Positions 17,641-25,858 of a stretch of 26,158 nt of DNA are shown here, piece after piece; the stretch's first letter is position 1; the number at the start of each line of letters is the position of its first letter. Source of the stretch: a virus (taxonomy: Duplodnaviria; Caudoviricetes); IMG/VR virus record IMGVR_UViG_3300012933_000129, positions 1-26,158 of that record; one strand, given 5' to 3'. The notes below the pieces were generated by a model, which had not been told where the DNA came from, did no database searches, and worked only from the letters and a program-made list of their open reading frames with translations. The translations under genes were made by a program, and so were the position numbers.

Positions 17641-18110
17641 GACATACACATGACCCTGAAGCAGACACGGCACCCTGTTAAGTGGATGCCGTAAAAAATG
17701 ACCCCTCGCTAGGATCAGCAGTTGGAACTTGTGTAGCCACAAGGTTTGTTTTATGTACATAGTGCTCTTGTTATGGGCTCTGTTCCTTACCCGACCAACA
17801 ACGATTTTTAAGAAGTAGCTTCTGGTGCCTATCTACTTCATCACAAGATTGTTACATTACTGTATCACTATGATTAACAACTATTCCGATTACGCAAATG
17901 TTACTCACAGTGGTGAGTCATTTAAAGCATCCTTGTTGCGACAAGGGTAGTGCGTAAAAGTTCAACTACAACTATTGAATTTGGCTGCCGTCACACATCA
18001 GAACGGATTCACCAACGGTATTATATTCGGCCCGTCAACCTTGTGTTGTATGATTTATTATTATTAGATTTGCCTAAGTGAGCCATGATTGTCTTGTGTG
18101 CCTATTACAT
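17641..18110 (-). ncRNA. Candidate large structured ncRNA (~470 nt), family not identified
   Basis: No ORF of 60 aa or more; about 12 adjacent stems, several needing G-U pairs only on the minus strand; TAAATA at 18114-18119 upstream. Confidence 0.6.
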
Positions 18111-25705: not shown

Positions 25706-25858
25706 ATGCCAGAACAATTAAATTTAAATTTTGAAGAAATCAAAAGAATAATAACCAATGCTAAAGAAAACAAACTAACTGAAGAAGACCTACAGTACCT
25801 TGATAAGTTAGGTAATCTTATTGCCTATGTTGAACACCTTAAAATACAAAAAGGTTAA
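25706..25858 (+). CDS. Only credible plus-strand gene, 50-aa helical protein (not in track)
   Basis: AAAGGATAGAAAC-ATG; MPEQLNLNFEEIKRIITNAKENKLTEEDLQYLDKLGNLIAYVEHLKIQKG*; its stop shares TTAA with the convergent gene. Confidence 0.7.
   Translation: MPEQLNLNFEEIKRIITNAKENKLTEEDLQYLDKLGNLIAYVEHLKIQKG

Follow-up and report, generated by a model that had tools for sequence, protein, structure and literature searches.

A conserved, pseudoknotted RNA-type element of small tailed phages and jumbo phages as a candidate RNA-primed replication origin

The window, i.e. the whole stretch of DNA analysed here, is the complete circular genome of a 26,158-bp tailed phage with a 55-bp terminal repeat (CheckV 100%). 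PHROG and Pfam scans of its 35 ORFs, many of the small ones being without a family, named terminases, portal, scaffold, capsid, tail genes and an endonuclease VII, and detected no polymerase, primase, helicase, integrase or sigma factor. A 50-aa ORF between tail genes (25706-25858), which has no family match, is the sole clearly plus-strand small ORF. No ORF of at least 50 aa is found between 17519 and 18346, and the minus strand of this gap carries a conserved element from 18052 to 17645 (Table 1).

The consensus of the T4 late promoter is TATAAATA, which the [CA]TAAATA sites of the window appear to us to resemble. All seven such sites on the minus strand lie just upstream of gene or RNA starts, and the plus strand has one site. 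Plain TATAAATA matches are no more frequent than by chance (36, with 44.5 expected); the evidence for promoters is positional. All 13 of 13 small phages with the RNA have a TAAATA-like motif ahead of the element, at a distance of 47-230 nt, and a sigma-70 scan found no promoter for the element.

A reading of the sequence alone had proposed here a large, ornate non-coding RNA of about 470 nt, free of ORFs, tiled with stems and placed under a late promoter. The general proposal is supported by the covariation given below and by the CTAAATA at 18120-18114. Its extent needs correction, as a 21-aa ORF runs into the 5' end of the structure and the conserved core starts at ~18052, not at 18110. This small ORF is not conserved as a protein, and the ORFs upstream of homologous loci vary: they encode a GIY-YIG protein of 141-153 aa (most jumbo loci), proteins of 85-102 aa or peptides of 21-59 aa, or are absent. 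Nine of the ten stems proposed fold as described on the isolated minus strand, and the one at 17849-17880 folds differently. Stem 17961-17979 is unfolded on the plus strand and stem 17699-17717 collapses there, which together with many G-U/G-C/A-U exchanges on one strand favours a minus-strand RNA, as had been argued. The shuffle test of folding energy was borderline for the minus-strand 470-mer (z -1.68, with 5 of 100 shuffles as good), and the plus strand gave z +0.95. Folding energy alone is weak; we judge the element to be real on homolog covariation.

The 80 best of 111 terminase relatives were taken in the search for syntenic homologs, and L065 carries a syntenic non-coding homolog of the element (nhmmer E 1e-18). 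A pattern built from the shared 5' end matches an estimated 680 IMG/VR stretches, a few of them by chance, and at least 120 were listed; we estimate that the element family has several hundred IMG/VR matches. Among the matches listed, 59 stretches are full-length. The alignment A2 ('type A') consists of 43 of the 44 non-redundant full-length sequences, with L093 left out for an internal deletion, plus L050 and L065. RNAalifold predicted 48 pairs on it, 25 of them with double-sided changes. The cells are paired in 270 of 270 cases for PK1 (15 double changes), 216 of 225 for helix h (79) and 225 of 225 for helix k (4), and the helices j, m and PK2 have no covariation support because they are nearly invariant.

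The window matches type A weakly (E 4e-4). A window-specific pattern found 32 loci, and the alignment A3 holds 19 distinct loci and the window (20 sequences); six loci in which the CACTACC domain is missing were left out, as were two near-duplicates. In A3, 82.6% of the cells are paired against 72.7% when shuffled (0 of 500), with slid controls at 27-47%, so that the check by homolog covariation is passed. P4 is paired in 100% and P6 in 99.3% of the cells; PK1, P5 and an inner helix stand at 57-65% due to register shifts. An HMM built with the window left out finds the window at E 3.8e-45, the first 28 nt being pattern-selected, and members of both types that were not used in training score 30-144 bits with a covariance model of A3. 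Many IMG/VR contigs (L082-L161) end 30-200 nt from the 5' end of the element, which suggests assembly breaks at a sequence common to several genomes. No RNA sequencing run containing the sequence was listed, and four DNA sequencing runs gave short related pieces only; neither has a bearing on expression.

Based on these alignments, the element is a large, pseudoknotted and conserved RNA-type structure, partly catalogued already. Its central domain was compared by hand in the five closest full-length members, i.e. the window, G011, G013, G027 and the 97-kb copy of G006. Compensatory changes were found in P2, P4-P7, h1, h2, i, k and o, and PK1 is supported in four of the five. Helices equivalent to those of the central domain covary in type A. 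In place of the local stems once drawn at 17849-17880 and 17768-17801, long-range helices conserved in these homologs give the better description. The hairpin at 17728-17743 does fold, but of the five members the window alone has it, as an insertion, and the hairpin followed by U6 is present but does not mark the end of the conserved element. A hairpin with a U run inside the element (17717-17692 with U6 in the window, U7 in G027) could be an attenuator before the second copy of the direct repeat described below. A perfect 9-bp complement between 18045-18037 and 17746-17738 (5'-3') was set aside, as it is expected by chance.

Table 1. Features at the locus, with window coordinates and the basis or place of each
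Feature	Position	Strand	Basis or place
Separate small structured unit	18349-18165	-	ATAAATA promoter, closing stem ~18337-18216, GCCAT loop, terminator 18195-18170
Putative gp55-type late promoter CTAAATA	18120-18114	-	position and likeness to the T4 consensus
Upstream ORF, 21 aa, ATGGC start	18086-18021	-	runs into 5' end of structure
5' domain	18052-17866	-	A3 alignment, leave-window-out HMM, RF01718 alignment
Pseudoknot PK1	18050-18045:17972-17967	-	5' domain
P2	18037-18032:18018-18013	-	5' domain
P4	18006-18003:17991-17988	-	5' domain
P5	17979-17975:17965-17961	-	5' domain
P6	17957-17951:17896-17890	-	5' domain
P7	17946-17941:17936-17931	-	5' domain
Central domain	17872-17721	-	hand comparison, five closest full-length members
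Long-range helix h1	17872-17866:17764-17758	-	central domain
Long-range helix h2	17848-17843:17771-17766	-	central domain
Hairpin i	17839-17833:17818-17812	-	central domain
Long-range helix k	17799-17795:17725-17721	-	central domain
Small stem l	about 17792-17775	-	central domain
3' domain	17717-17645	-	hairpin plus U6, helix o, direct repeat
Hairpin plus U6	17717-17699	-	3' domain
Helix o	17692-17684:17675-17667	-	3' domain
AT-rich spacer	17644-17574	-	candidate unwinding region; like tract in homologs
TGAGTGTTAACGA motif	17573-17561	-	conserved, downstream of element
Mini-hairpin	17554-17537	-	part of DNA-level hairpin cluster

The Rfam and ARAGORN scans of the whole window gave no match at the element, and the kinship to GOLLD or ROOL that had been considered is not borne out: the Rfam covariance search matched neither, and ARAGORN showed no tRNA-rich context. 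A relation to Polynucleobacter-1 (RF01718) is suggested by alignment, as 18040-17890 aligns to all 141 positions of this model, helix for helix, including CACUAYCC...GGAYG. The window reaches 16.9 bits (E 0.32 in an 801-nt stretch) against a gathering cut-off of 37, and a whole-genome search of the window gave no RF01718 match. The homolog L226 scores 29.6 bits (E 0.014), and the third copy in G006 is a true RF01718 member at 59.6 bits, with the TGAGTG..ACGA tail downstream. By this alignment, the 5' third of the element is a distant relative of Polynucleobacter-1 and, by score, not a member. Only about a third of the element is represented in the Polynucleobacter-1 model; its 5' pseudoknot, its central and 3' domains and its direct repeat have no counterpart there. 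The motif was catalogued by Weinberg 2010 (PMC2864571), in the accessible text of which no function or phage role is given. In the literature searched, mostly papers free of subscription, we found no description of the full RNA or of its link to satellites or small phages, and the accessible text on DSL-LC06, a related metagenome-assembled phage, mentions no such RNA (PMC10611076).

The element family is found in gp55-type jumbo phages of ~370 kb and in tailed phages of 26-31 kb, so the suggestion that large gp55 phages carry homologs proved right. Type A occurs once in each of five jumbo fragments, typically in the order late sigma, gp47, gp46, GIY-YIG ORF, element. Related elements stand at three sites of the complete 372-kb jumbo genome G006 (97.3, 240.5 and 322.6 kb). 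The first is the closest full-length jumbo copy and directly follows a gene that we take, by its motifs, to be RNase HI-like; among the loci searched by tblastn, RNase H adjoins the element at this one only. Judged by gp46, the cultured phages most closely related are Phosso, PA5oct and Atu_ph07 (48-45%). PA5oct (L214:9200-10400, ~75.9-77.0 kb) and Phosso (L216:9410-10425) have structured gaps of ~1 kb with hairpin tails in the gp46-gp26 slot, followed in Phosso by an annotated RNase HI. The family HMMs and our model R1 gave no significant match in the syntenic gaps of PA5oct, Atu_ph07 and Phosso, nor at the loci of a second RNA type (type B, see below), L059 or the gap of G025. Kinship is compatible with these misses, since R1 fails even on the true RF01718 copy of G006. 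The four ncRNAs reported for PA5oct (PMC7318152, Table 1) lie outside the syntenic gap. Four of five GTDB matches score with the covariance model; they are on MAG contigs and possibly are pieces of phages. Searches by blastn gave nothing meaningful for the window region and a type-A member against GenBank phages, and one chance match for L065 against PLSDB plasmids.

A hint at the function comes from what replaces the element in related small genomes. We took 18 of the 20 longest terminase-selected contigs, leaving out two that are less than 80% complete and keeping three at 81-90%. An RNA element is present in seven of the 18; it is of type A in G021, G024 and G030, of the subtype of the window in G027 and of type B in G023, G029 and G032. 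Ten of the 11 RNA-negative genomes have a protein in the slot instead, a beta-barrel protein in six and a polymerase-like one in four, and none of the seven RNA-positive genomes has either (Fisher p 2.5e-4, kinship ignored). With six RNA-positive genomes found by other routes included, neither protein was found in any of 13 (best stray match E 0.03). The remaining genome, G025, has a structured gap with no match to the RNA or to a slot protein. The module lies 184-520 nt behind the same 171-aa-family gene in ten genomes, whatever its kind. In the terminase tree (20 of 24 genomes), different modules occur in very close relatives, e.g. type-A RNA in G021, the barrel in G022 and type-B RNA in G032 within one 100/99 clade, or RNA in G030 and the polymerase in its close relative G031. 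The slot did not stand out when the small genomes were first scanned for hairpin density.

The polymerase-like slot ORF is found in G028, G031, truncated in G026 and weakly in G017 (E 0.004). The model of the 344-aa protein (pLDDT 92.5) folds as a family-A palm without exonuclease (Foldseek E 7e-6, probability 1.0), with invariant D148 and H309-D310 and a TM of about 0.6 to viral proteins fused to a D5 helicase. On this predicted structure it is a minimal, primase-like family-A polymerase; such polymerases were predicted as primases in PMC2579912 and are described as primases in PMC10061031. The beta-barrel proteins (231-293 aa; L001:1887-2630, G016, G018, G019, G020 and G022) form one family by leave-one-out HMMs (E 1e-23 to 1e-4). 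They have a disordered N-terminus whose DNA holds hairpins similar to those behind the RNAs. The searches of PDB, Atlas and family databases gave no assignment (best VIA Z 6.7), and the family is a candidate new replication initiator.

The type-B RNA (GGGGTTAAAACASGACCC..., ~300 nt) is unrelated in sequence, has the same layout of promoter, RNA and hairpins, and has no Rfam match. It gave 21 IMG/VR matches, all on contigs shorter than 35 kb, and is found at L332-L352, L032, L048, L071 and DSL-LC06 (L217:744-1041). The gaps of G025 (L315, before a 154-aa ORF) and L059 (3061-4025), which are promoter-led and structured, with hairpin tails and no model match, are possibly more RNA types for the same slot.

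A small structured unit of ~150-180 nt, which has a TAAATA promoter and a terminator to itself, is found ahead of the slot whichever module the slot holds (the window, L001, L065, G013, G016, G019, G028 and G029). In most copies a hairpin loop presents GCCAT, which is complementary to an AUGGC start, and the unit is a possible antisense RNA against start codons of a helper phage or of the phage itself. In one clade it is replaced by a structured element of ~110 nt (L332:1106-996, minus strand) with 56.1 bits to Rfam Atu_At1 (cut-off 60, E 1e-6), which also lies upstream in L032, L039, L048, L050 and G022.

Near its 3' end the element has a 7-nt direct repeat, the two copies of which are identical in all 45 type-A sequences. 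The repeat of the window is GGGTCAT, at 17704-17698 and 17656-17650 on the minus strand, 48 nt apart; across the five closest members the copies lie 45-53 nt from each other, and every member has a repeat sequence of its own. In type A, the 15 non-consensus cases (5 types) are all identical in both copies, although ten of the 15 are of one type and possibly reflect one event, and overall 315 matches are seen against 275 +/- 4.7 when shuffled. Further variants occur in the subtype of the window. No 7/7 internal partner exists in 32 of the 45 type-A sequences, and no type-A column is complementary to the seventh base of the repeat (best 82%). Such covarying direct copies would fit better with pairing to the complementary DNA strand than with recognition by a protein, and RNA-template pairing by rG:dC is described as needed in ColE1 (PMC4412123). 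In the subtype of the window, the first copy has an internal partner at 17717-17712, so the repeat may also be an intramolecular switch or attenuator. Downstream of the element, the motif TGA[GA][TC]G..RCGA is found at 46 of 72 homologous loci against 3 of 72 upstream control windows, and C-GN(N)A-G hairpins at 48 of 72 against 1 of 72. Around the motif and mini-hairpin of the window, 44 of 45 bases are shared with L065 at 95% (42 of 44 identical), and the DNA-type hairpin tail is kept even behind the unrelated type-B RNA.

The RNA element swaps with a primase-like enzyme in the same slot, and hence it likely starts DNA replication. A replication primer RNA had been the fallback of the sequence-only reading; considering the swap, the direct repeat and the downstream motif and hairpins, it now appears to be the better supported one. 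We consider it fairly probable that the element is a ColE1-like, RNA-primed origin acting in cis and used by a helper-dependent small phage. The late sigma factor of the helper would transcribe from 18120, and the nascent RNA would fold so that the first repeat copy is free. This copy would pair with the template strand opposite the second copy and nucleate a persistent R-loop, and the RNA 3' end would prime the leading strand near 17645, with or without trimming by RNase H. The displaced strand and the AT-rich tract would then expose the mini-hairpins, on which the helicase and primase of the helper could be loaded. Against this reading, an origin is not usually timed by a late promoter, and six of the ten slot proteins are barrels to which no function could be assigned. 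GC and AT skew were uninformative as a test for an origin and lend no support: the GC skew at four-fold sites keeps its sign across the element in both G001 and G008, and in G006 gene class confounds the pattern.

The late-type promoter, the lack of a GC-skew signal, the ornate fold with GNRA caps in some members and the up to three related copies in one jumbo genome would all agree with a late RNA acting in trans. GOLLD, ROOL and OLE are thought to act in this way as scaffold, decoy or regulator, and an RNA taken from a jumbo phage might mimic or titrate a helper factor. But this would leave unexplained why a polymerase-like gene can take the place of the element, why even type-B RNA keeps the DNA-type hairpin tail and why a direct repeat lacking an internal partner covaries, and we regard a trans-acting role as unlikely. 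A structured single-stranded DNA origin (ssi/SSO type), with a promoter that serves just to open the duplex and a fold that acts as DNA, would fit all the comparative evidence for an origin equally well, and the hairpin tail is DNA-like. However, the G-U/G-C/A-U exchanges on one strand, the short long-range pseudoknots, the A-rich junctions and the GNRA loops are hallmarks of RNA, and a promoter or operon always precedes the element in the same orientation, which make this possibility distinctly unlikely.

In most jumbo loci the GIY-YIG ORF ends inside the 5' pseudoknot strand, and the element occurs in several contexts, as could be expected if it were the RNA that works with the adjacent GIY-YIG or endonuclease VII nuclease, or a selfish mobile ribozyme or intron. 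We hold this to be very unlikely, since the upstream ORF is missing at some loci and gives way to unrelated proteins or short peptides at others, a GIY-YIG gene is absent from the window, and no interrupted gene, variable guide segment or Rfam intron match was found. A group I/II intron or an RNA-guided nuclease was rejected for want of an interrupted gene and of an obligate cognate protein. In the DRT2 ncRNA, direct repeats are used for template jumping, and the repeats here flank a hairpin and often begin with ACA, but a template for a reverse transcriptase is highly improbable, as RVT_1 matched in none of five genomes (three complete; 3 of 14 controls matched) and neither the window nor several of the variants have the ACA.

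The RNA-primed origin reading involves a helper. The late-sigma family phrog_12791 was found in none of five small genomes (the window and four related ones), and is present in three of five jumbo records tested and in G001. The window has late-type promoters, and neither a late sigma factor nor a replisome of its own was detected among its ORFs, many small ones of which have no family. The late-type promoters along with the undetected late sigma and replication genes lead us to infer helper dependence, and judged by gene content, the phage of the window is probably a satellite depending on a co-infecting jumbo helper. We speculate, more tentatively, that the virion-encoding phages of 26-31 kb might be an abundant aquatic class of obligate satellites of the ~370-kb gp55-type jumbo phages, hijacking the jumbo replisome through a captured copy of the jumbo phage's ribozyme-sized origin RNA, interchangeable with a primase-like gene. 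The endonuclease VII gene of the window (17032-16673, minus strand) lies downstream of the element, and relatives carry endonuclease VII or GIY-YIG genes near the slot; the enzyme might serve to resolve DNA branches for packaging, or be directed against the helper.

Few of the large ornate RNAs of bacteria and phages have a known job, and the gene-swap series in genomes of 26-31 kb points to one, the starting of replication. If this is true, it would give a function to Polynucleobacter-1 and its larger family and indicate how gp55-type jumbo phages of ~370 kb start their replication, with candidate origins for a large group of them, and it would suggest an overlooked class of satellites with their own virions. 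A fragment of 600 bp with a two-site compensatory prediction would make a compact test system.

Among known systems, the element resembles GOLLD, ROOL, ARRPOF and PAGEV in being large, pseudoknotted and borne by phages or plasmids, and ARRPOF and PAGEV are described as lying in replication regions (PMC5737381). It differs in having no Rfam match to any of them and in its context. Like the T4 origins oriF and oriG, it combines a promoter with a downstream unwinding element, here a candidate one, in a gp55-type phage, with several per genome, but we know of no conserved RNA fold at the T4 origins. A primosome site lies downstream of the ColE1 origin. In T4, oriF and oriG are described as using middle promoters, and ColE1 RNA II shares with the element a promoter, an obligatory fold of several hundred nt, a predicted RNA-template pairing and loading signals on the displaced strand (PMC4412123). 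The promoter and the conserved structured transcript region of a ColE1-type origin are both present here at the sequence level. The element differs from ColE1 in having no sequence similarity to plasmids, no Rfam match to plasmid origins, a repeat that is not a G tract, a phage late-type promoter and no antisense RNA I identified. With the phage satellites, as which we take the Vibrio PLE with ICP1 and MiniFlayer, the window shares a small genome apparently without genes for replication and late transcription and signals in common with a large lytic phage, but it has no integrase and encodes its own capsid, portal, terminase and tail.
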